DNA of 64,000 nucleotides. It comes from an uncultured Candidatus Saccharibacteria bacterium. GTDB taxonomy: Bacteria > Patescibacteriota > Minisyncoccia > Phycocordibacterales > CAYSCM01. Shown here in pieces: positions 5,086 to 64,000 of the stretch (its first letter is position 1; each line of letters begins with the position of its first letter). Below the pieces are notes generated by a model that worked only from the letters and a program-made list of their open reading frames with translations, was not told where the DNA came from and searched no databases. Both the position numbers and the translations under genes were made by a program. The stretch is from the NCBI GenBank assembly GCA_964429815.1, contig CAYSCM010000001.1, positions 416,001-480,000 on the forward strand. The letters are read 5' to 3'.

Positions 5086-7554
5086 ATGGCTGACGATAAA
5101 AAAACGAACTACGAGCACCAAAGCATCCTTCCGCGCAGCATCAGCGCGGAGATGAAAGAAGCGTACCTCGACTACGCGATGAGCGTTATTACGAGTCGCG
5201 CACTCCCTGATGCACGTGACGGCTTAAAGCCGGTGCACCGCCGCATTCTCTACACGATGCATCGACTCGGACTCGCCTCGACCGCGAAGGCACGCAAATC
5301 AGCGACCGTCGTCGGCGATGTGCTCGGTAAGTTCCATCCGCATGGCGATGTGGCAGTCTACGATGCGATGGTGAAGATGGCCCAAGATTTCGTCATGCGC
5401 TACCCGCTCATCGTGGGGCAGGGCAACTTCGGTTCGATAGACGGCGACTCCGCCGCAGCCATGCGCTACACCGAGGCAAAAATGTCGCGCATCGCCGTCG
5501 AGCTCCTGCGCGACCTCGACAAAGAAACGGTCGAGTGGCGTCCCAACTACGATGGCACGCTCAAAGAGCCCGTCGTGCTGCCCTCTGCGGTTCCGAACCT
5601 TCTCTTAAACGGCACTCTCGGCATCGCGGTCGGCATGGCAACGAACGTTCCCCCGCACAACCTCGGTGAGGTGATCGATGCGACCATCCACCTCATTGAA
5701 AACGACGAAGCGGGAAATGAAGATCTTCTCCAGTTCGTCAAAGGCCCCGATTTTCCAACCGGCGGCATCGCGTACAACCAAAAAGATATTTCGCACGCCT
5801 ATGCGAGCGGGAAGGGGGGCGTGGTTGTTCGCGGCGAGACGGAAATTTCTGAAGATAAGAAAGGGCAGTTCCGCATCGTCATTTCCTCCATCCCGTACCG
5901 CGTTAATAAAAGTGATCTCATTGTAAAGGTTGCCGATCTGGTGCGCGAGAAGAAGCTCGAAGGCATCCGCGACATCCGCGACGAATCGACCAAGGACATC
6001 CACATCGTCGTTGAACTGAAGCAGGGTGCTCAGCCGCAGAAGGTACTCAACTATCTCTTCAAGCACACGCCGCTTGAGGAAACCTTCCACTACAACATGC
6101 TCGCACTTGTCGACGGCGTACCGCAGACGCTCTCGCTCAAGGGCATTCTCGAGGAATTTATCAAGCATCGTCGCGAGGTGGTAAAGCGCCGCACGGAGTT
6201 TGACCTCAAGGTCGCCGAGGATCGCGAACATATTTTGCTCGGTCTTTCCAAGGCGCTTGATCATATCGATGCCATCATAAAGATCATAAAGGCGGCTAAA
6301 GACGTGCCGACCGCTAAGGTGGATTTGATGAAGAAGTTTAAGTTTTCTGATCGCCAGGCGGATGCGATCTTGGAAATGCGACTTTCAAGGCTTGCGGGGC
6401 TTGAGCGCAAAAAGATCGAGGATGAACTCACCGAGGTACAAGCGCTCATCAAAAAGCTCAAAGATATTCTCTCGAGCCCGAAGAAAATCCTTGCCGTCGT
6501 CAAAGAGGAGCTCGTCGCGATTCGAGAAAAGTACGCGGACGACCGAAGGACGAAAGTCGTGAAGGGCGGCGTGAAAGAGATATCCGATGAGGATCTCATT
6601 CCGGATGAGGAGAGTGTGCTCGTTCTCACCGCTGGCGGCTACGTGAAGCGCACCAACCCTTCTGAGTACCGCAAACAGAAGCGCGGCGGTGTCGGCGTCG
6701 TCGACCTCGATACGAAAGAAGAAGATTTTGTCACGACCTTCCTCACCACCTCGACCCATGCGGACCTTCTCTTCTTCACCGACCGCGGCAAAGCCTACCA
6801 AATAAAAATGTACGACATTGCGGAGGGGCGCCGCGCGACGAAGGGGAAGTCCATCATGAACTACCTGCCGCTCAGCGACGGTGAAAAGGTCTCGTCCATC
6901 CTCGCGATGCCAAAATCAGCAAAGAAAGCCGAGGGACTCGCACTTCTCATGGTCACCAAAAACGGTGTCGCGAAAAAGGTGAAGGCCCAGAGCTTCTACG
7001 ACGTGCGCCGCTCAGGCCTCATCGCCATTACCCTTAAAGAAAAGGGTGATGAACTCATTTCCGCAAACTTTGTCGAGAAGGGGGACCATGTGATCGTCGC
7101 CACCAGCAAGGGCCAATCCATCCGCTTTAAGGAAAGCGATATTCGCGAAATGGGGCGCACCGCCGCAGGAGTGCGCGCTATGAAACTTGGGAAGAAGGGA
7201 GACGCGGTTGTCGCTGCAGAAATCATCAAAAAAGGTGACAACACCGCGGAGCTCCTCGTGCTTAGTAAAAAAGGCTACGGTAAAAAAACCAAAGCGAGCG
7301 AATACAAAGTACAGCACCGTGGCGGCTCGGGCATTAAGACTTCGAAAGTCACGGACAAAACAGGAGAAATTATTGCCTCGCGCATCGTGACCCCGGAAGA
7401 TGTCGCGGAGGGTGAGCTTGTCGTCATTTCTAAGAAGAGCCAGGTTATCCGCACCGACCTCAAGGCCGTGCCGACACTCTCTCGCGCAACGCAGGGGGTG
7501 CGTATTATGAAGCTTCGCGAGGGAGACGCGATCGCAAGCTTCGTCTGTCTGTAG
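5086..7554 (+). CDS. gyrA: DNA gyrase subunit A
   Basis: [30 protein letters not shown] and the full GyrA length. Start taken at ATG 5086 (MADDKK) right after the upstream stop, again a TAACCATG junction. No gyrB in the window. Confidence 0.92.
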
Positions 7555-56656: not shown

Positions 56657-58288
56657 ATGACGGCTCACACCCGTATCGCTATGCTGTATTTGCGCCTCAT
56701 TTGGAGACAATTGAAAATAGTCGGAGCGCACCTTAAGACCATCGGCAAAATTGTCTGGTCGTTCGCTAAATCGCACAAAATCGTGAGCTCGATCGTAGCG
56801 GCCGCCTTGGCCACAGGCCTTGGTGCGGCCGCTTATTTTGGCGCCAGCAAGGCCGCGACGACGATAGCGGAGGGTCCTGCCGTCCACCTCGTGCGCGTCG
56901 GCGACGTGTCCGCCTCAGCTCCCATTTCGCTCATCGGCATCGTGCGCGCCACGCGGGAGGCCAATGTCGCTCCGGATATTTCTGGCACGGTCTCGGCCGT
57001 GTACCGCAACCTCGGTGACTACGTGCCCGCCGGGACCATCATCGCGGAGCTTAAAAACGACACGCAGCGCGCTGCCGTGGCGGCTGCTCGCGCGGCGCTC
57101 CAAAAAGCCCAAAGCGGCAGCGTCGTCGGCGGCATCAGCGTCGAGAACGCCCAGAATTCCTACGCCGCAGCCATCGATACCGCACGGTCAACGGTACAAA
57201 GCGCATACTCGACCATTGATGACGCTATCGCACGAAAAGCGGATCAAACGTTTTCAAACCCCAACAGCCCGCAGCCGCATTTCAACGTCTCAAGCTCTAA
57301 TTCGCAGCTCGTCGTCAATGTTCAAAATGACCGTTTGGCTATGCAGGCCATTCGGGCGCGCGAGAGCACGGTAGTGGTAGCTACACTCTCTCCAGGCGAT
57401 CTCCTTGCCGAACTCTCCTTACTTGGAAGTGAAGTAAAGTCCGTTCAAAACTTCATGCAGGACCTGGTCGCCGCACTTAATGCCGCCGTTCCCACCTACG
57501 GGATCACTGAAGCGACTATCGCAGGCTATCGTGCGGACGTATCAGCAGGGCTCGCCAGCATTAATGCGCTTGCGAGCTCACTGCCGGGAGTATCCGAGAT
57601 GCTCAAAACAAAACGTGCCGCGGTCGACATCGCTCAGACGTCGCTTGCAACCGGCTCCACGGGAGAGAGCGCCGACGTTGCGGCTGCGGAGGCGAACCTC
57701 GCGCTCCAACTCGCCGGACTTGAGAAAACGCTCATCCGAGCCCCCATCTCCGGGACCGTCAATAGGCTCGATCTCGACGTCGGCTCTTTCGTCAACGCAT
57801 CGGTCCCAATCGTCTACATCACGAGCGCCGGTGGTCTTGAAGTGGTCGCCTTCGTTTCGGGAAATGACATCGCTGACATCGCCGTCGGAGCCAAAGCGAA
57901 GGTAGGCGCCAGTGTTGACGGGGTAGTCGCACGCGTCGCAAGCGCCCTCGACCCTCTGACGAAAAAGGCGGAAGTGCGGGTCTTTGTACCGCCGTCCGCT
58001 CCGCTGGTCGCAGGACAGTCGGCGACCGTCTCTGTAGAGCGCTCCGCGCCAAAGGTCCCGTCGGCAAATCCGACCCTCACCGTCCCCCTCACCGCGATCA
58101 AGATAACGCCGCAATCTCCCTTGGTGTTCACCGTGAACGACGCGCACCAGCTCGTCGGAAATCCCGTGGTTCTCGGAACCCTGCGCGGGGACAGCGTCGA
58201 CATTGTAAGCGGCGTTACCGCCACCATGCAGATAGTCGAGGACGCCCGCGGGCTTAAGGAAGGACAGGCAGTTATCGTAAATCCCTAA
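56657..58288 (+). CDS. efflux RND transporter periplasmic adaptor subunit (HlyD/MFP family)
   Basis: N-terminal TM, long alpha-hairpin region, beta-barrel/MP domains (LIRAPISGTVNRLDLDVGSFV). Directly upstream of the RND permease. Confidence 0.8.
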   Translation: MTAHTRIAMLYLRLIWRQLKIVGAHLKTIGKIVWSFAKSHKIVSSIVAAALATGLGAAAYFGASKAATTIAEGPAVHLVRVGDVSASAPISLIGIVRATREANVAPDISGTVSAVYRNLGDYVPAGTIIAELKNDTQRAAVAAARAALQKAQSGSVVGGISVENAQNSYAAAIDTARSTVQSAYSTIDDAIARKADQTFSNPNSPQPHFNVSSSNSQLVVNVQNDRLAMQAIRARESTVVVATLSPGDLLAELSLLGSEVKSVQNFMQDLVAALNAAVPTYGITEATIAGYRADVSAGLASINALASSLPGVSEMLKTKRAAVDIAQTSLATGSTGESADVAAAEANLALQLAGLEKTLIRAPISGTVNRLDLDVGSFVNASVPIVYITSAGGLEVVAFVSGNDIADIAVGAKAKVGASVDGVVARVASALDPLTKKAEVRVFVPPSAPLVAGQSATVSVERSAPKVPSANPTLTVPLTAIKITPQSPLVFTVNDAHQLVGNPVVLGTLRGDSVDIVSGVTATMQIVEDARGLKEGQAVIVNP

Positions 58289-58294
58289 ACCGCC

Positions 58295-61200
58295 ATGTCC
58301 GGCCTCTGGAACTTTTTTATTGAACGACGGCAGTTCACGATACTCGTCATGATAGCGCTCACCGCGGCAGGCCTTGTCGCGGTCATCGCCATACCCAAGG
58401 AAAACGCACCCGAGGTTAAGGTGCCGGTCGCGGTCATCGCGACGACGCTCCGAGGCGCTTCTGCCGCGGACGTTACCAAGCTCGTCACCAAAGAGATCGA
58501 GAAGGAGGTTGGGACGGTCGAAAATCTTCACAAGCTCACCTCCTCTTCGCGGGAGGGAGTGTCGGTCGTGACCGCGGAATTCGAAGCCTCCGCCAACCTT
58601 GACAAATCTATCCAGAACATCAAAGACGCGGTCGACCGCGCCAAGCCGAACCTGCCGCGCGACGCCGACGAGCCCGTCATAACCCGTGTTTCTTTCAGTG
58701 ATCAGCCCATTCTCATCATTTCGATCTCGGGCGGGCTTCCGCCGACGGAGTTTGCCTCGCTTGCGAAGGACGTGAAAGACCAACTCGAGCTCGTTGCCGG
58801 CGTTTCCTCTGTTGACGTGGCCGGGACACGCGAGCGCGAAGCGGACGTCGTCGTGCGCCGCGAGGCGCTCGACGCCTACGGACTTACGCTCTCCGATGTC
58901 GTCGGTGCGATCGGCGCCGCGAACGCCTCGCTCCCCATCGGCACCATTACCGTCGACAAGGTCGAGTACGCCATCGCCTTTCACGGCGATCTCAATGACC
59001 CTGAAGACCTCCTCGGGGTGACCGTGGGACAGGTTGGCGGGCGGCCCGTGTATCTGCGCGACATCGCGGACATCGTTAACGGCATCGAAAGGGCGAAGAC
59101 CATCTCTCGCGCGTCGGTGCACGGGTCGCCCGCCGAGCCTGCCGTGACGCTTTCCGTCCATAAGCGCGCCGGTGCAAACATTTTCCTCACCGGAAGCGCC
59201 GTCAAGAAGAAACTTTCCGAACTCAGCGCAACGACCCTCTCGGGCCTTACGACCTCGATATCGATAGACCTCGGAGCGGAAGTCTCCAAGAGCCTCGGCG
59301 AGCTCACTCGGGTCGGCGTCGAAACGGTCATTCTCGTTATTTTGTGCCTCCTTCTCACGATAGGCTGGCGGGAATCGATCGTCGCCGGACTCTCTATCCC
59401 GCTCTCCTTTGTCATCGCATTCTCCGGACTTTATCTTTCCGGCAACACCATCAATTTCGTTTCGCTCTTCTCGCTCATTCTCGCGATAGGAATCCTCGTC
59501 GACTCCGGCATCGTCGTCACGGAAGCCATCCACACGCGCCTCAAGCGTTTCGGAGAGCCGATCTTTGCCGCAAAGGAAGCGATACGCGAGTATGCCTGGC
59601 CGCTCACCGCGGGGACCCTTACGACGGTCGCGGTGTTTGCGCCTCTCTTTTTCATCTCCGGCATAACGGGGCAGTTCATCGCCTCCATCCCATTCACGGT
59701 AATTTTCGTCCTTATCGCGTCCATTTTCGTCGCGCTTGGCCTCGTGCCGCTTATTGCGATCATGTTCACGAAGACGGAGCTCAACGGCCTCGAGCGGCTT
59801 CAGGAGGAGTGGAACCTCAAGCTCCAGAGGCGCTACCGGGCGTGGCTGCTTCGCATACTCGGCGACGGAGCGTTCCAGCGGAAGTTTTTGCGCGGCATGA
59901 CCGCGGGTTTCATCATCGCCCTCATCCTGCCCATGACGGGGCTCGTCAAGGTCATCTTCTTTCCCCAAAGCGATTCCGAGTATGCGTACCTTGAAATAGA
60001 GACCAAGCAAGGGACGCCGCTTGCGCAAACCGATCTCGCCGCGCGTGGGGTCGAGGAGCTTCTCTATGGAGACCCGCGCATCGCCTCCTTCGTAACGACG
60101 ATCGGCGCCACCTCGCCGCTCTCCCAAAGCCCGACTTCGGGCACTAAGTACGCCAACATCACGATTCGCCTCGTGCCCGAAAAAAATCGCGCGCAAAGCT
60201 CAACGAAGATCGTGAACGAGCTGCGCAACAAGGTCGCAGTCTTCCACGATTTCACCGTGCGCGCGCTTGAGCCGCAGGGCGGCCCGCCGACCGGCGCGCC
60301 GGTTGTTATCACCTTCTCGGGGGAGAATCTCGATGATTTGGAGAAGGCGGCCGACCTCGGAGAGCGAACCCTCAAGGAAATCCCAGGGGCGATCGAGGTG
60401 ACGACCTCGACGAAAGATAATGGGACGCAGTTTGGGCTCACTATAGACCGAGGAAAAGCGGCGGAAGTAGGGTTGACCCCTGTCCAAGTCGCCTCCGCGC
60501 TTCGCACGGCGGTCTCCGGCACTATCGCGACTACCATCAAGAGCGATGCGCGGGACATCGACGTGCTCGTCCTTTCCAATCTCAACCCGAACTGGCGCGA
60601 TCCGACGGATACGACCGAGGCGACGATAGATTCCGTCATGAACCTTTCGATAAAGACACCGCGGGGGAGCGTGTTGCTCGGCTCCATTCTCGCCTCCGGC
60701 ATCGAGCGCAACAGCGCCATCATTAAACGCGAAGACCAAAAGAACATCGCGACGGTTTCCTCGTACTTGTTGCCGGGGAAGACGGCAGGAGAGGTTTCGT
60801 CCGCCTTTTCCACGGCGATAAAAAAGGTCGATTTTCCGAAGGGAGTGGCTATGAAGATAGGAGGCGAAACAGCAAATGTCGACCAATCGTTCCAGGAAAT
60901 GTTCTATGCCCTCATCGGCGGCATGGTTCTCATGCTCGCCATACTTGTTCTTGCATTCAACTCTTTCCGCTACTCCTTCTACCTCCTGATGCTCGTGCCG
61001 CTTGCGCTCATCGGCGTTTTTGCCGGGCTTGCGATAACGCGCCAGCCGCTCTCGTTCCCTTCGCTTCTCGGCGTCATCGCGCTCGCTGGCGTCATCATCA
61101 ACCATGCCATCATCCTTGTTGATTCAATGATCGTGCGCATGAAAAACCCGGAGGGCAGAGGGCTCCCCGAGGTCGTCGCGGACGCCGCCGTTTCGCGCTT

Positions 61201-61420
61201 CCGGCCAATAATCCTCACCACGCTTACGACCGTCATCGGCATGGTGCCGCTCGCGGGCGCGTCAGCGCTGTGGGGCCCGCTCGCGTTTGCCATTATGTTC
61301 GGCCTCGCCTTCGCGATGGTGCTCACGCTTGTATTGACACCCATCCTTATTTTCCGACATCCCGGTAAAGAGTTTTGGAAGGAGCCTCAATCTGCAGCGC
61401 ACGGTAGTGCAAACGCTTAA
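58295..61420 (+). CDS. efflux RND transporter permease subunit (AcrB/HAE1-like)
   Basis: 1041 aa, 12 TM with two large periplasmic loops, conserved TM4 region (LSLFSLILAIGILVDSGIVVTEAI). Confidence 0.9.
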   Translation: MSGLWNFFIERRQFTILVMIALTAAGLVAVIAIPKENAPEVKVPVAVIATTLRGASAADVTKLVTKEIEKEVGTVENLHKLTSSSREGVSVVTAEFEASANLDKSIQNIKDAVDRAKPNLPRDADEPVITRVSFSDQPILIISISGGLPPTEFASLAKDVKDQLELVAGVSSVDVAGTREREADVVVRREALDAYGLTLSDVVGAIGAANASLPIGTITVDKVEYAIAFHGDLNDPEDLLGVTVGQVGGRPVYLRDIADIVNGIERAKTISRASVHGSPAEPAVTLSVHKRAGANIFLTGSAVKKKLSELSATTLSGLTTSISIDLGAEVSKSLGELTRVGVETVILVILCLLLTIGWRESIVAGLSIPLSFVIAFSGLYLSGNTINFVSLFSLILAIGILVDSGIVVTEAIHTRLKRFGEPIFAAKEAIREYAWPLTAGTLTTVAVFAPLFFISGITGQFIASIPFTVIFVLIASIFVALGLVPLIAIMFTKTELNGLERLQEEWNLKLQRRYRAWLLRILGDGAFQRKFLRGMTAGFIIALILPMTGLVKVIFFPQSDSEYAYLEIETKQGTPLAQTDLAARGVEELLYGDPRIASFVTTIGATSPLSQSPTSGTKYANITIRLVPEKNRAQSSTKIVNELRNKVAVFHDFTVRALEPQGGPPTGAPVVITFSGENLDDLEKAADLGERTLKEIPGAIEVTTSTKDNGTQFGLTIDRGKAAEVGLTPVQVASALRTAVSGTIATTIKSDARDIDVLVLSNLNPNWRDPTDTTEATIDSVMNLSIKTPRGSVLLGSILASGIERNSAIIKREDQKNIATVSSYLLPGKTAGEVSSAFSTAIKKVDFPKGVAMKIGGETANVDQSFQEMFYALIGGMVLMLAILVLAFNSFRYSFYLLMLVPLALIGVFAGLAITRQPLSFPSLLGVIALAGVIINHAIILVDSMIVRMKNPEGRGLPEVVADAAVSRFRPIILTTLTTVIGMVPLAGASALWGPLAFAIMFGLAFAMVLTLVLTPILIFRHPGKEFWKEPQSAAHGSANA

Positions 61421-61565: not shown

Positions 61566-61594
61566 TTGACCGTCGTGAATAAATATGCTTTAAT
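61566..61594 (+). promoter_or_regulatory. sigma70-type promoter TTGACC-17-TTTAAT for paralog A
   Basis: ttgaccgtcgtgaataaatatgctttaat. A paralogous promoter at 62587-62615 shares the ataaatatg spacer. Confidence 0.5.
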
Positions 61595-61629
61595 TTCCCT
61601 CAGTTCTTTGGCATTCAAGAGTACCGTGA

Positions 61630-61684
61630 GATGAGCTTTTTGTGGCTGAAAAGTCGGCCCCAAAAAGCTCGTCTCATCAGAGAC
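61630..61684 (+). promoter_or_regulatory. conserved 5'-leader stem-loop, copy A (candidate cis-regulatory RNA)
   Basis: 13-bp stem gatgagctttttg/caaaaagctcgtc encloses ggcug-aaaagu-cggcc, followed by hairpin gtctc-atca-gagac. Copy B at 62659-62702 differs by compensatory base pairs. Confidence 0.45.
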
Positions 61685-61733
61685 AGTCGCCAGTCCGAGC
61701 GCCACGGGCATCACACCACTAAGGAGGTATGCG

Positions 61734-62501
61734 ATGGAAACCATCGTGAGCCGCACCTTGTCGGTACACAAGGAACACGAAGTCCTTCTGAAGCTCGAAG
61801 CGGCGGGGTTCAGCGACGATCTCGCACAGAAGGTCATCGAATCGAGGGACAACGACCTCGCCAAAAAGGTCGTGCGCCTCATTCGGAGCGGCGGCCTCGA
61901 GCCGTCGACCTCACAGCAGAAGGCCCGCGAGATCATGGGCACGAACATGTTCGGCATCGAGGACGCGATCAAGCATTTCGACGTCAACCCGTCGAAGACC
62001 CAGCTTGCCGCACTCTGCGAAATCCCGTTCAGTGAGGAAGTGCTCGTGGCCTCTAAGGACACGCACGTTCTTGTGGCGCTGTTTCCACTTTCAATCCTCG
62101 ACGTTCGAGGCGAGGCCGACTGTAGGCTCTTCTACTTCCACGAAGGCACCTGGTACAACAAGAAGCAGGCGTTCGCGAAAGACAGGGGCGAGATCGGCTG
62201 GCAGCTCGTTCGCAAGACCCCGGTTGACAACTCGACGAGCAAGTCTTGGGGCGAGCAGCAGAAACTGCTCGGTAAGGACGAGGAGACGCCGAAGGCGCAG
62301 GTAATTGTCTATACGATCATTGCCCACTTTCTCTCAACCGGCGAGCGATTGTTCGAAAGCATCTACGTCAGATGTTCCGATCTCGGCTCGGACGGCTTCC
62401 GCATCAACGTCGGCCGTTTTAACGTCATAGGTCTCCACATCAACCACTACTGGGACGACCGCCGCCACGACAACCTCGGCTTATCCTCTGCCCGGAAGTA
62501 A
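61734..62501 (+). CDS. hypothetical protein, paralog A (255 aa)
   Basis: SD AAGGAGGtatgcg-ATG. C-terminal half is homologous to 62753-63538 (IYVRCSDL..G..VG.F...GL...YWDD.RHD.LGLSSARK). Confidence 0.55.
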   Translation: METIVSRTLSVHKEHEVLLKLEAAGFSDDLAQKVIESRDNDLAKKVVRLIRSGGLEPSTSQQKAREIMGTNMFGIEDAIKHFDVNPSKTQLAALCEIPFSEEVLVASKDTHVLVALFPLSILDVRGEADCRLFYFHEGTWYNKKQAFAKDRGEIGWQLVRKTPVDNSTSKSWGEQQKLLGKDEETPKAQVIVYTIIAHFLSTGERLFESIYVRCSDLGSDGFRINVGRFNVIGLHINHYWDDRRHDNLGLSSARK

Positions 62502-62536
62502 CCTTGAATCTTGGGGCCTCGGTCTCTTGTTCCCTT

Positions 62537-62576
62537 GAGCCCCTGCGAATTTTTTTTGCGGGGGCTCTTTGTTTTT
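62537..62576 (+). terminator. intrinsic terminator after paralog A
   Basis: gagcccctgcg...cgggggctc, then tttgttttt. Confidence 0.65.
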
Positions 62577-62586
62577 GGCACTGAGA

Positions 62587-62615
62587 TTGACTAGAGTCTA
62601 TAAATATGATAAAGT
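62587..62615 (+). promoter_or_regulatory. sigma70-type promoter TTGACT-17-TAAAGT for paralog B
   Basis: ttgactagagtctataaatatgataaagt. Confidence 0.45.
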
Positions 62616-62658
62616 GCGTCCGGCGTTCTTTTCCATTTACTACAAAGGTTACTTATGA

Positions 62659-62702
62659 GGCGAGCTTCCTGCGGCTGAAAAGTCGGCCCCAAAAAGCTCG
62701 TC
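62659..62702 (+). promoter_or_regulatory. conserved 5'-leader stem-loop, copy B
   Basis: ggcgagcttcctgc-ggctgaaaagtcggcc-ccaaaaagctcgtc. Outer-stem pairs G-U and C-G occupy the positions where copy A has A-U and U-G. Confidence 0.45.
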
Positions 62703-62752
62703 TCAATCAAGAGGTAGCCGCTCGCCCAAGCGTAGGGCACAGGAGAACGACG

Positions 62753-63538
62753 ATGACGACCGCCAGGTCTATCACGTCCGAACAGCGTACCCAGTACAAT
62801 CGCTTCGTGCAGGATGGAGGCCGCAAGGCTCTTCGCCAAGCCGGTCTCGACAGGGAGGGTCTGCAACGGCTCTTCAAACGCGGCGGCGAATTCCAAGCCC
62901 ATATCTTGGAAGGCGTCAAGCGTTTTTCGGCGAAGCAGCCGGACTACACGCTGGCGCAATCCATCCTCGGCGTCGATTTCATCACGCCGGAGGAGCTCAT
63001 GAAAGTGTCGGCGGTAATTTACGAGGACAAGCACCTCGCTTCGCTCCACGACACTGTCCCGCCGGAAGACGTTCTGCGTTGGTGCAAAGACCATAATTAC
63101 GTCGTGGTCGCGGCCCCACCCTATCCGATAAACTTGCTCAACATCCGCATGCTCGACAGCAGCCTCTTCTATTCCAAAACGGGCGGCTGGTATTCCGAGC
63201 AGAAGTTCGCGAGCGAGAACAAGACCAACACGGGCTGGCTCATGATCCGCAAGGATCCTGTGCCGAAATCGACCAGCAAGAACTGGGACGAGCAGAACCA
63301 GCTCGTCTTCGGCGTCGAGCACGTTCCGAATTCGGCCGAGGTGAGTTGGCTTGTCACGACCTATTTCAAGGTTCGCGGCGTCCGGCTCTTCGAGAACATC
63401 TACGTCAGATGTTCCGATCTCGACTCGGGCGGCAACCGCGTCTACGTCGGCTACTTCGACTCGGAGGGTCTCCGCGTCAGCTTCTACTGGGACGACTTCC
63501 GCCACGACCTCCTCGGGTTGTCCTCCGCCCGGAAGTAA
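62753..63538 (+). CDS. hypothetical protein, paralog B (261 aa)
   Basis: Start set to ATG 62753 with SD cAGGAGAacgacg-ATG. The track ORF 62606 includes the leader. Homologous to paralog A over the C-terminal roughly 150 aa. Confidence 0.55.
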   Translation: MTTARSITSEQRTQYNRFVQDGGRKALRQAGLDREGLQRLFKRGGEFQAHILEGVKRFSAKQPDYTLAQSILGVDFITPEELMKVSAVIYEDKHLASLHDTVPPEDVLRWCKDHNYVVVAAPPYPINLLNIRMLDSSLFYSKTGGWYSEQKFASENKTNTGWLMIRKDPVPKSTSKNWDEQNQLVFGVEHVPNSAEVSWLVTTYFKVRGVRLFENIYVRCSDLDSGGNRVYVGYFDSEGLRVSFYWDDFRHDLLGLSSARK

Positions 63539-63573
63539 CCTTGAATCTTGAGGCCTCGGCCTCTTGTTCCCTT

Positions 63574-63612
63574 GAGCCCCCGCGAAATTTTTCGCGGGGG
63601 CTCTTTGTTTTT
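63574..63612 (+). terminator. intrinsic terminator after paralog B
   Basis: gagcccccgcgaaa-tt-tttcgcgggggctc, then tttgttttt. Confidence 0.7.
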
Positions 63613-63644
63613 AGAGTGAAAAATTTGTTCTTAAGGAATGGTCA

Positions 63645-63673
63645 TTGACGCAATAGAAGCTATGTGTCATAAT
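63645..63673 (+). promoter_or_regulatory. near-consensus sigma70 promoter TTGACG-17-(TGt)CATAAT, leaderless start
   Basis: ttgacg(63645-50), 17-nt spacer, tgtcataat. ATG at 63680 is 7 nt downstream of the -10. Confidence 0.55.
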
Positions 63674-63679
63674 TGAGGC

Positions 63680-63856
63680 ATGACAGGCAAGCGAGCCCAT
63701 AACCCGACCCGAGGCCCCATCAAGACTTTTATGGAGAATGGCCACTGGAGCGTTAAGCGCCACAAGACGGTCATTTTGGTGTGCCGCTCATGCGGCGGGA
63801 AATATGTAAAGACGCGTGATCGGCAGACCATGTGTTTGCGCTGTCTCCTCGCCTAA
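63680..63856 (+). CDS. hypothetical small zinc-ribbon protein (58 aa)
   Basis: MTGKRAHNPTRGPIKTFMENGHWSVKRHKTVILVCRSCGGKYVKTRDRQTMCLRCLLA with CxxC-x17-CxxC. Absent from the ORF track (<60 aa). Confidence 0.4.
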   Translation: MTGKRAHNPTRGPIKTFMENGHWSVKRHKTVILVCRSCGGKYVKTRDRQTMCLRCLLA

Positions 63857-64000
63857 CGGGATCACAAACGAGCGCCGCGCATCAAAACGATGCGCGGCGC
63901 TTTGCGTTTACGACACACTCTGCCAGTATAGGAAAGCATGGACGTCTGCAGCAAAAGAAAAACGGCCGGCTTTGTGCCCTATCGGATGGGCGGCCACTCC

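Follow-up and report, generated by a model that had tools for sequence, protein, structure and literature searches.

Two adjacent genes, p1 and p2, in a 64,000-nucleotide window of an uncultured Candidatus Saccharibacteria contig are very probably variable-protein genes of a diversity-generating retroelement (DGR); they form an ancient paralog pair of a Patescibacteria-specific DGR target family. As no TR (template repeat), RT (reverse transcriptase) or Avd (accessory protein) was found for the pair, the action of a DGR on p1 and p2 is deduced from homology and from the pattern of substitutions. In the relatives, a nearby TR-Avd-RT cassette copies the TR RNA into cDNA, with adenines as the sites of random misincorporation, and this cDNA takes the place of the gene's final ~120 nt, which make up the variable region (VR). 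Such rewriting re-randomises about 12–15 residues on a ligand-binding domain with the C-type-lectin fold.

Organisation of the two units

The two promoter-leader-gene-terminator units named in the preliminary description are present as described (Table 1). Both genes are monocistronic, and they appear to be expressed from strong consensus promoters via a conserved structured leader. The layout of the unit 1 promoter recurs in the upstream regions of orthologs as TTGAC-17-TGnTAxAAT, and the box that follows the −10 has the family consensus GTTCTTTGA. The choice of the p2 start codon is backed by orthologs. A 32-nt leader core (GGCTGAAAAGTCGGCCCCAAAAAGCTCGTCTC) and a 42-nt 3'-UTR block each occur in exactly two copies in the window, where chance would give none.

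Table 1. Coordinates of the features of both units, counted from the first letter of the window
Feature	Position	Strand	Basis or remark
Unit 1	61566–62577	+	promoter, ~130-nt leader, gene, GC-rich terminator
Unit 1 promoter, TTGACC-17-TGcTTTAAT (extended −10)	61566–61594	+	read from sequence
Unit 1 −35, TTGACC	61566–61571		
Unit 1 −10, TTTAAT	61589–61594		17-nt spacer with 3' end TGc
Unit 1 box, AGTTCTTTGG	61602–61611	+	directly past the −10; kept in most family leaders
Unit 1 5'-UTR motif	61625–61716	+	covariance-model match 72.1 bits; fold z-score −4.9
Unit 1 hairpin P1	61627–61676		
Unit 1 linker, GAGACAGTCGC	61680–61690		
Unit 1 hairpin P2	61693–61709		
p1 gene, 255 aa	61734–62501	+	helical N-terminal region and predicted C-type-lectin-fold domain; subfamily p1
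VR1, ending in ...TCCTCTGCCCGGAAG	62379–62498	+	homologous to DGR template repeats, GC-rich IMH-like end; aligned to 39 template repeats
Unit 1 small 3'-UTR hairpin, GGGGC-ctcg-GTCTC	62513–62526	+	predicted fold; two G-U pairs; 11 nt past the stop codon
Unit 1 13-bp GC-rich hairpin and T-run	62537–62577	+	hairpin 62537–62567; intrinsic terminator, candidate DGR target hairpin
Unit 2	62587–63613	+	head-to-tail after unit 1; identical part order
Unit 2 promoter, TTGACT-17-TAAAGT with upstream TG	62587–62615	+	
Unit 2 5'-UTR motif	62654–62747	+	covariance-model match 58.8 bits; fold z-score −3.4
Unit 2 hairpin P1	62656–62705		two C-A mismatches; followed by linker, then P2
p2 gene, 261 aa	62753–63538	+	predicted C-type-lectin-fold core as in p1, other N-terminal ~60 aa; subfamily p2
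VR2, ending in ...TCCTCCGCCCGGAAG	63416–63535	+	homologous to template repeats, IMH-like end; template-repeat alignment
Unit 2 small 3'-UTR hairpin, GAGGC-ctcg-GCCTC	63550–63563	+	predicted fold, hairpin scan
Unit 2 13-bp GC-rich hairpin and T-run	63574–63613	+	hairpin 63574–63603; terminator, candidate target hairpin

Paralogy and protein family

The p1 and p2 proteins are 41% identical over residues 64–255 (E 1e-46), and their first ~60 residues are unrelated. At third codon positions, identity amounts to 24–44% in the gene body versus 80–82% in the last 50 codons, and near-identical DNA is limited to about the last 150 nt of the CDS and to the UTRs, with 45/50 matches between the leader hairpins and 69/75 between the 3' UTRs with their terminators. 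Separate orthologs of p1 and of p2 occur in other Patescibacteria at 55–85% identity, with a range of 47–85% among the p2 orthologs. Since each has orthologs of its own, p1 and p2 are ancient paralogous subfamilies, and the tandem duplication of a complete unit proposed earlier is not a recent event. The accompanying picture of a conserved C-terminal half and fully diverged N-terminal halves needs adjustment: the C-terminal similarity is real and the first ~60 residues are indeed unrelated, but homology begins at residue 64 and spans about three quarters of the proteins.

Homologs of p1 (906) and p2 (152) were all from Patescibacteria, and the profile search for the family returned 3683 cluster representatives (50% identity clusters). 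Searches of Pfam, NCBIfam, PHROGs and PDB sequences yielded no match above threshold for either protein, and profile HMMs of FGE-sulfatase or other named CLec families (Pfam/NCBIfam) had no significant match; the earlier statement that no family is recognised is borne out by the empty Pfam, NCBIfam and PHROG checks. The C-terminal domain of both proteins is a predicted C-type-lectin fold with the VR at the extreme C-terminus. No signal peptides or TM segments were found in the p1 and p2 proteins.

The N-terminus of p2 is seen again in a third target family, joined there to another C-terminus, and many family relatives carry other N-terminal extensions. The suggestion of swapped N-terminal modules thus holds across the wider family, yet the diversified part is the C-terminus and not the N-terminus, and the supposedly conserved C-terminal module corresponds to a DGR variable region with its putative homing signals. 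The exchange of N-terminal modules would fit a system of the polymorphic-toxin or contact-dependent-inhibition type that swaps its domains, an explanation that we consider extremely improbable: there is no toxin/immunity pair, secretion-associated domain or small immunity ORF after either gene, the variable end is a predicted C-type-lectin fold in an architecture opposite to that of a conserved N-terminus with a toxin C-terminus, and the relatives diversify by RT-driven adenine mutagenesis. The likeness to polymorphic or diversifying systems first remarked upon is therefore sound as regards diversification, through a DGR, but not as regards the polymorphic-toxin type.

DGR linkage in relatives

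A DGR cassette with template repeat, Avd and RT adjoins the family gene in 36 of 80 related loci, and an RT is present in 23 of the 44 related loci that have at least 5 kb on both sides. Across 44 VR-TR pairs from related loci, 697 of 773 mismatches fall on TR adenines. Locus L002 is an explicit DGR-linked example, whose RT has the motif IGNLTSQ, which we take to be DGR-typical. In loci L021, L032, L034 and L037 a p1-like and a p2-like gene draw on a single TR, and in L021 and L034 the gene order is p1-like, p2-like, TR, avd, RT; L012 and L034 have two cassettes each. The identity to genes with an adjacent TR and adenine-only differences is 57–72% for p1 and 51–67% for p2. About half of the surveyed family members have no cassette in the flanks looked at (up to 10 kb on each side), for which reason a DGR-independent life of the family may exist.

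The DGR variable proteins of Patescibacteria/CPR were reportedly first surveyed by Paul et al. in 2017. The targets of the CPR-specific DGR clade 2, which lack recognisable domains (Roux et al. 2021, PMC8144416), come from the same phylum as p1 and p2 and resemble them as short proteins that have a C-terminal VR and lack signal peptides, TM segments and recognisable domains. The likeness extends to the relatives of p1 and p2, whose cassettes take the form VR-TR-(avd)-RT or VR-VR-TR-RT and whose mismatches are adenine-specific. Unlike the clade 2 cassettes, p1 and p2 stand alone, with RT, Avd and TR all missing from the 74 kb searched, and VR1 shows non-adenine drift.

Substitution pattern of the variable regions

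The IMH-like VR end ...GCCCGGAAG aligns with the TR ends ...GCCCGG(C/A)AG. VR1 and VR2 differ at 17 of the 29 columns with a TR adenine versus 12 of the 88 others (Fisher p = 5e-6), and within the final 120 nt the differences show a nine-fold enrichment at the adenine positions of the relatives' templates. A shared type of template would account for last ~50 codons that are near-identical despite ~41% protein identity and that differ mainly at the adenines of AAC codons; the conservation of the C-terminal DNA would then be only apparent, because the two copies go back to a single type of template. In comparisons with p2 relatives of 83–85% identity, the differences lie mainly at VR codons.

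These data bear on another account, in which p1 and p2 are tandem paralogs of the ordinary kind, without any DGR past in this lineage, and their ends resemble each other solely through purifying selection and gene conversion between direct repeats. The window contains no cassette, and the identity of the leaders and 3' UTRs lies outside the TR homology and needs a further explanation in any case, such as gene conversion or shared constraint. Nevertheless, the differences are enriched at template adenines, plain gene conversion is not expected to confine them to AAC codons, the closest p2 relatives vary specifically at VR codons, and the proteins are 55–72% identical to bona fide DGR targets, so that this account is very unlikely.

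The remaining columns separate the two VRs. At 42 columns that are fixed as non-A in the templates, VR1 has 7 mismatches and VR2 has 3, the latter equal to the median of 3 among DGR-adjacent VRs. VR2 departs from typical templates at adenines and hardly anywhere else, and it looks like a freshly written VR. VR1 carries ~10 ordinary non-adenine substitutions, 3 of them inside the IMH-like end; its extra changes are mostly transitions or synonymous, a type of change typical of drift. These additional changes suggest that VR1 at least is probably no longer rewritten.

Search for a cassette and the present state of the pair

The search for a cassette covered 74 kb of the 501,704-bp contig (61 kb upstream and 10 kb downstream of the pair). 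In tblastn with five CPR DGR RTs, the window and the 10 kb downstream gave no match even at E <= 10, no RVT gene was called in locus L005, and Avd had no match in the window or L005 at E <= 10. A third copy of the VR that could represent a TR was absent from the window (blastn, word size 7). Thus, no complete DGR locus with RT, TR and Avd is present within the 74 kb searched. Among the best 120 of more than 7700 matches to RT homologs, none lay on a contig of 501,704 bp. Exact protein matches were found only on short Logan contigs, and the zinc-ribbon ORF had no match. The flanking genes in the window (RND pump, MFP, zinc-ribbon ORF, NUDIX, VKOR, PMSR) recur in 0 related loci.

Among cassette architectures, VR-VR-TR-RT ranks second in frequency (PMC11661182), and p1 and p2 likewise are two neighbouring targets with VRs of one template type. 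Unlike in those cassettes, TR-avd-RT is missing 3' of p2, where an unrelated small zinc-ribbon ORF and a NUDIX gene are found instead. When a p1-like and a p2-like gene are served by a single TR, their 3' ends stay identical at every non-adenine position, and in five loci whose shared TR is active the paired VRs differ at 0–1 of ~90 non-A columns. From the 12/88 non-adenine differences between VR1 and VR2, the drift in VR1 and the missing cassette, we infer that the pair has lost its link to a shared active template. Our preferred reading, towards which the evidence leans slightly, is that the pair was orphaned by loss of its cassette; otherwise, VR2 alone would still be serviced in trans.

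A competing possibility, to which we give appreciably less credence, is that both genes are fully active trans targets of one or two cassettes elsewhere in the genome, beyond the 74 kb. It would agree with VR2, which is indistinguishable from DGR-maintained VRs at the template-invariant columns, and with the IMH-like end, small hairpin and GC-rich hairpin, which are intact in both units. Moreover, remote targets are acknowledged and are missed by cassette-based surveys (PMC8144416), and two templates, as in the two-cassette relatives L012 and L034, could explain the 12 non-adenine differences. Against it stand the contrast of these 12 differences with the near-identity in the five shared-TR loci, the drift-like extra changes of VR1 that reach into its IMH-like end and, weakly, the lack of an RT homolog on a contig of 501,704 bp among the best 120 matches. 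The single same-MAG case of possible remote targeting, the TR of L045 and the VR of L084, gave no fit.

A structured 5' leader

The leader consists of a long (~20 bp), covarying hairpin P1, a conserved linker and a short hairpin P2. Covariation is strong, the leader precedes the genes of at least three DGR-target families with unrelated VRs, and exact-pattern instances in metagenomes number at least 120. The earlier claim of identical regulation is correct insofar as the leader is common to both units, but this leader is family-wide and not a product of duplication. P1 is missing in some DGR-linked family members, and hence the leader is not needed for DGR targeting.

With its position between a strong promoter and the SD, its covarying hairpin, conserved single-stranded linker and second small hairpin, the leader resembles Rfam-type cis-regulatory 5'-UTR motifs; unlike the catalogued leaders, it matches no Rfam 15 family. 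A scan of the leader region gave only spurious, sub-threshold miRNA-like matches on the hairpin, and no family fell on the leader in the whole window and six related loci, so a known RNA was rejected as an identification. Rfam matches elsewhere were LOOT RNA and tRNAs only. Pairing of the P1 3' arm with a downstream GAGAC was also rejected, since it was 94% paired but its covariation was too weak, and no complementary partner of the conserved linker was found in DGR RNA or UTRs. A further contrast with the described clade 2 targets is that full-text literature searches found neither the conserved structured 5' leader nor the YTTGA-studded 3' UTR of the family. On a reading that we hold to be less likely than not, P1, the conserved GAGACAAGUCG linker and P2 would constitute an undescribed cis-regulatory RNA class dedicated to hypervariable-protein genes of Patescibacteria.

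Hairpins in the 3' UTR

A 5-bp hairpin was detected in the 3' UTR of 45 of 86 family genes by a heuristic scan, which missed the unit 1 copy; it usually lies 11–14 nt past the stop codon, and its stem occurs in 17 variants with covariation across the family. The GC-rich terminator hairpin is conserved across the family as GAGCCxCCGCG...CGCGGxGGCTC, and all hairpins, P1 included, are closed by UGAG...CUC. The IMH-like end, the small hairpin and the GC-rich hairpin are putative signals for target recognition and termination.

Homing in BPP-1 requires hairpins downstream of the VR (PMC3240598). As in Bordetella phage BPP-1 Mtd, Treponema TvpA and Thermus TaqVP, the VRs of p1 and p2 have a GC-rich IMH-like end followed by inverted repeats. 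In contrast to these systems, p1 and p2 have no detectable sequence similarity to the three proteins, differ in their N-terminal region (helical, ~100 aa) and lie outside any phage-tail or lipoprotein context. Their first downstream hairpin combines a 5-bp stem with a CTYG(T) loop, where the phage consensus is a 7–10 bp GC stem and GRNA loop, and the GC-rich hairpin doubles as an intrinsic terminator ~35 nt past the stop codon. On the less likely reading already given for the leader, the CPR clade would have in its two 3' hairpins an equivalent of the target cruciform of BPP-1, and all the hairpins might enable one cassette to find scattered targets in trans. The whole promoter-leader-gene-3'UTR unit could then be a portable 'DGR target cassette', with non-coding parts that work as signals of their own.

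Implications

Comparison of two VRs at non-adenine columns (0–1 of ~90 in active pairs, 12 of 88 here) provides a practical flag for targets that are no longer rewritten, and the leader offers a handle on the expression timing of these variable proteins of ultra-small symbiotic bacteria. Stand-alone targets such as p1 and p2 bear on how frequent trans servicing or fossilisation is, both of which are invisible to cassette-centred surveys. For the family as a whole, the assignment would give a mechanism-level identity to a very large group of CPR 'hypothetical proteins' (3683 clusters) that is absent from domain databases.

Paired units and their protein family

As the preliminary description had it, two adjacent promoter-leader-gene-terminator units lie head-to-tail at the right end of the window; the unit 1 leader measures about 130 nt, and the 64 kb contain exactly two copies of a 32-nt leader core and two of a 42-nt 3'-UTR block, where chance predicts none. 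The paralogous products p1 (unit 1) and p2 (unit 2) share 41% identity over residues 64–255 (E 1e-46), and their first ~60 residues are unrelated. Identity between the units is strongly non-uniform along their length: 45/50 positions agree in the leader hairpin and 69/75 in the 3' UTR plus terminator, while third codon positions are 24–44% identical in the gene body versus 80–82% in the last 50 codons.

Features of the two units and of related loci
Feature	Location	Strand	Remark
Unit 1 promoter	window 61566–61594	+	TTGACC-17-TGcTTTAAT, read from sequence
GTTCTTTGA-like boxes	window 61602–61611, 62625–62632		directly after -10
Structured 5'-UTR motif	window 61625–61716, 62654–62747	+	alignment A4 (49 related leaders), covariance model R1
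p1 CDS	window 61734–62501	+	255 aa
Unit 1 terminator	window 62537–62577	+	13-bp GC-rich hairpin, T-run
Unit 2 promoter	window 62587–62615	+
p2 CDS	window 62753–63538	+	261 aa
Unit 2 terminator	window 63574–63613	+
p3 gene	L016 6112–7008	-	template repeat at L016 5584–5715
p3 gene	L043 8171–9112	+
LOOT RNA (RF03000)	L034 9340–9471	-
LOOT RNA (RF03000)	L037 7456–7590	-

The pair had been attributed to tandem duplication. However, searches detected 906 homologs of p1 (the best 120 of the 906 are 64–73% identical over the full length), and p2 has its own orthologs at 47–85% identity. Because of these separate orthologs and the large family of homologs, p1 and p2 are ancient paralogous subfamilies instead of recent duplicates, and their near-identical ends therefore call for a different explanation. 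All named homologs are Patescibacteria MAG proteins labelled hypothetical and without Pfam domains, and searches of Pfam, NCBIfam, PHROGs and PDB sequences returned nothing significant, in line with the earlier statement that no family is recognised. Screening 1.84 billion cluster representatives with a profile gave 3683 members at E ≤ 1e-3, of which 2338 reach E ≤ 1e-10; many members keep the core (profile positions ~60–261) behind different N-terminal extensions. The swapped N-termini proposed earlier thus have counterparts in the family, but the variable part is the C-terminus, in which hypervariable columns stand at fixed positions of an otherwise conserved alignment (SDGxRVxVGxFxxxGLxVxxxWDxxRxxxLG).

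DGR cassettes in related loci

In L002, the first related locus inspected, an asparagine-codon-rich second copy of the last ~115 nt of the gene lies downstream, followed by avd and by a reverse transcriptase (RT) that carries an IGNLTSQ motif, typical of diversity-generating retroelements (DGRs). The gene differs from the downstream copy only at adenines of the latter, which is the signature of a DGR. In this long-read MAG the RT (5661–6705) is broken into two ORFs near 6200–6235, probably reflecting an assembly frameshift and not a pseudogene.

When 78 loci taken from species-representative genomes were surveyed together with the earlier loci, a DGR RT turned up in 36 of 80; among the 44 loci flanked by 5 kb or more on each side, 23 had one. 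Typically the order is target(+), template repeat (TR, +) ~350 nt downstream, avd(-) and RT(+). Across 44 pairs of TR and variable region (VR, the 3' end of the target gene), 697 of 773 mismatches (90%) fell at TR adenines; the suspected diversifying system is indeed diversifying, with a DGR as the mechanism, and the earlier interpretation as a whole is partly supported. Both the p1-like and p2-like subfamilies are DGR targets. A single TR serves a p1-like and a p2-like gene in L021, L032, L034 and L037, and two p1-like genes in L009, matching VR-VR-TR-RT, reportedly the second most common DGR architecture (PMC11661182). The family also agrees with a CPR-restricted DGR clade in whose targets no domains, transmembrane or other, are recognisable (PMC8144416). 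A third target family with the same 5' leader motif, p3, has a p2-like N-terminal ~60 aa and a different C-terminal VR scaffold, and in L016 it differs from the adjacent TR at adenines only.

Two separate RT/Avd cassettes lie within 20 kb in L012 (1791–3204 and 4947–6335) and L034 (315–1611 and 12185–13549), so more than one template per genome is possible. L034 and L037, the two closest p1–p2 loci, carry LOOT RNA on the opposite strand, 200–300 nt 5' of the p1 leader; the window contains none.

State of VR1 and VR2

The last 117 nt of p1 and p2 (VR1 and VR2), aligned to 39 TRs, differ at 17/29 template-adenine columns versus 12/88 other columns (Fisher p = 5e-6), and the closest p2 relatives (83–85% identical) differ from p2 mostly at VR codons. 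Since the differences concentrate at these positions, the supposed conserved C-terminal module would be a DGR variable region, and the DNA-level conservation of both 3' ends would reflect origin from one template type.

Neither a template nor an RT or Avd was found in the 64-kb window or 10 kb beyond. In five loci with one TR for two VRs, the VRs differ at 13–19 of 25–33 adenine columns and at 0–1 of ~90 non-adenine columns; considering this calibration against active loci, we conclude from the alignments that a shared active template is not keeping VR1 and VR2 in register. Over the 42 columns at which 90% or more of the templates agree on a non-A base (template-invariant columns), VRs next to a DGR carry a median of 3 mismatches (range 2–11), compared with 3 in VR2 and 7 in VR1. 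The extra changes of VR1 are largely transitions or synonymous, and its IMH-like end (the GC-rich 3' end) holds three of them. Two readings fit: loss of the cassette, or continued service in trans that reaches VR2 at most. A family gene pair in L010 (10001–10765 and 12299–13069) with near-identical 3' UTRs has no cassette in its flanks (10 kb upstream, 7.7 kb downstream), and each of its VRs shows just 2 mismatches at template-invariant columns, a clean state that VR1 lacks.

Directly 3' of unit 2 (63645–63901), at the position of TR-avd-RT in relatives, the window carries a strong promoter (TTGACG-17-TGnCATAAT), a zinc-ribbon-like ORF of 58 aa (CxxC...CxxC; 63680–63856), for which an exact-protein lookup in the gene-position index gave no record, and a 14-bp hairpin (63871–63901). 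On the 5' side (56657–61420), a membrane-fusion-protein-like ORF and a 1041-aa ORF look, from reading their translations, like an RND/AcrB-type efflux pair. None of the related loci shows synteny with the window's flanking genes.

Structured untranslated regions

In the family leader, a GTTCTTTGA box follows the -10; next come the long hairpin (UGAGACGAGC...GCUCGUCUCA), the conserved GAGACAAGUCG linker, a CCGAGCGAUUCGG-type small hairpin and the SD. The shared leader is a family-wide structured 5' UTR and did not arise through the duplication of these two units. Over 49 distinct sequences, 14 of the 20 long-hairpin pairs carry compensatory changes; pairing holds in 96.5% of cells (82% in shuffles, 32–52% in slid controls), with 124 double-change cells versus 35 in shuffles, and 0/500 shuffles matched these values. 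Frequent G-U pairs and the higher scores of the sense strand indicate an RNA on the coding strand.

In 1.28 Mb, every covariance-model hit lay immediately 5' of a family gene except two (L016 and L043), which lie upstream of p3 genes, and no Rfam 15 family matches the motif. An exact-pattern, orientation-blind metagenome scan yielded at least 120 stretches. Among the 80 loci listed are 82 motif instances, most upstream of DGR-target-type genes (55 directly upstream of p1-, p2- or p3-like genes). Manual inspection of 12 more instances placed three before related VR-bearing proteins (L090, L129, L097) and a few before other small proteins; the remainder mostly run into contig ends or lack a covariance-model match. 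The long hairpin is missing from several DGR-linked members (L002, L008, L021, L031, L032) and is therefore not required for targeting; the leader is a candidate cis-regulatory RNA.

After the stop, the family 3' UTR reads CCTTGA-n-CTTGAGGGCTTGTCCCTCTTGA-n-CTTGAGCCTCCGCG...CGCGGAGGCTC-T(n), with a small 5-bp hairpin, usually 11–14 nt past the stop, followed by the GC-rich terminator hairpin. The stem of the small hairpin comes in 17 variants, among them compensatory (GAGGG/CCCTC, GAGGA/TCCTC, GAAGC/GCTTC, GAGGC/GCCTC) and G-U ones. Paired genes within a genome have near-identical 3' UTRs in L009, L010, L021, L032, L037 and the window although these hairpins fall outside TR homology, which points to gene conversion, shared constraint or both. 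Homing in phage BPP-1 depends on a hairpin/cruciform located 4–34 bp 3' of the VR, its GC stem 7–10 bp long and its loop of GRNA type (PMC3240598); the family hairpins differ from it in geometry and have a putative role in DGR targeting. YTTGA repeats run throughout the 3' UTRs (window 62502–62536, 63539–63573), and all three hairpins of each unit close with UGAG...CUC(A/U).

Implications

Logan short-read assemblies of the same population (L004, 1056 bp; L005; L006) break exactly at the repeated inter-unit sequence, L005 and L006 beginning 77 nt 5' of the unit-2 ATG; MAGs will often split or lose tandem targets such as p1/p2. The p1/p2 locus is unannotated and belongs to a known category, DGR targets. 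The advance is modest and twofold, comprising stand-alone DGR targets, one VR of which is drifting, and the conserved structures in the family's UTRs.
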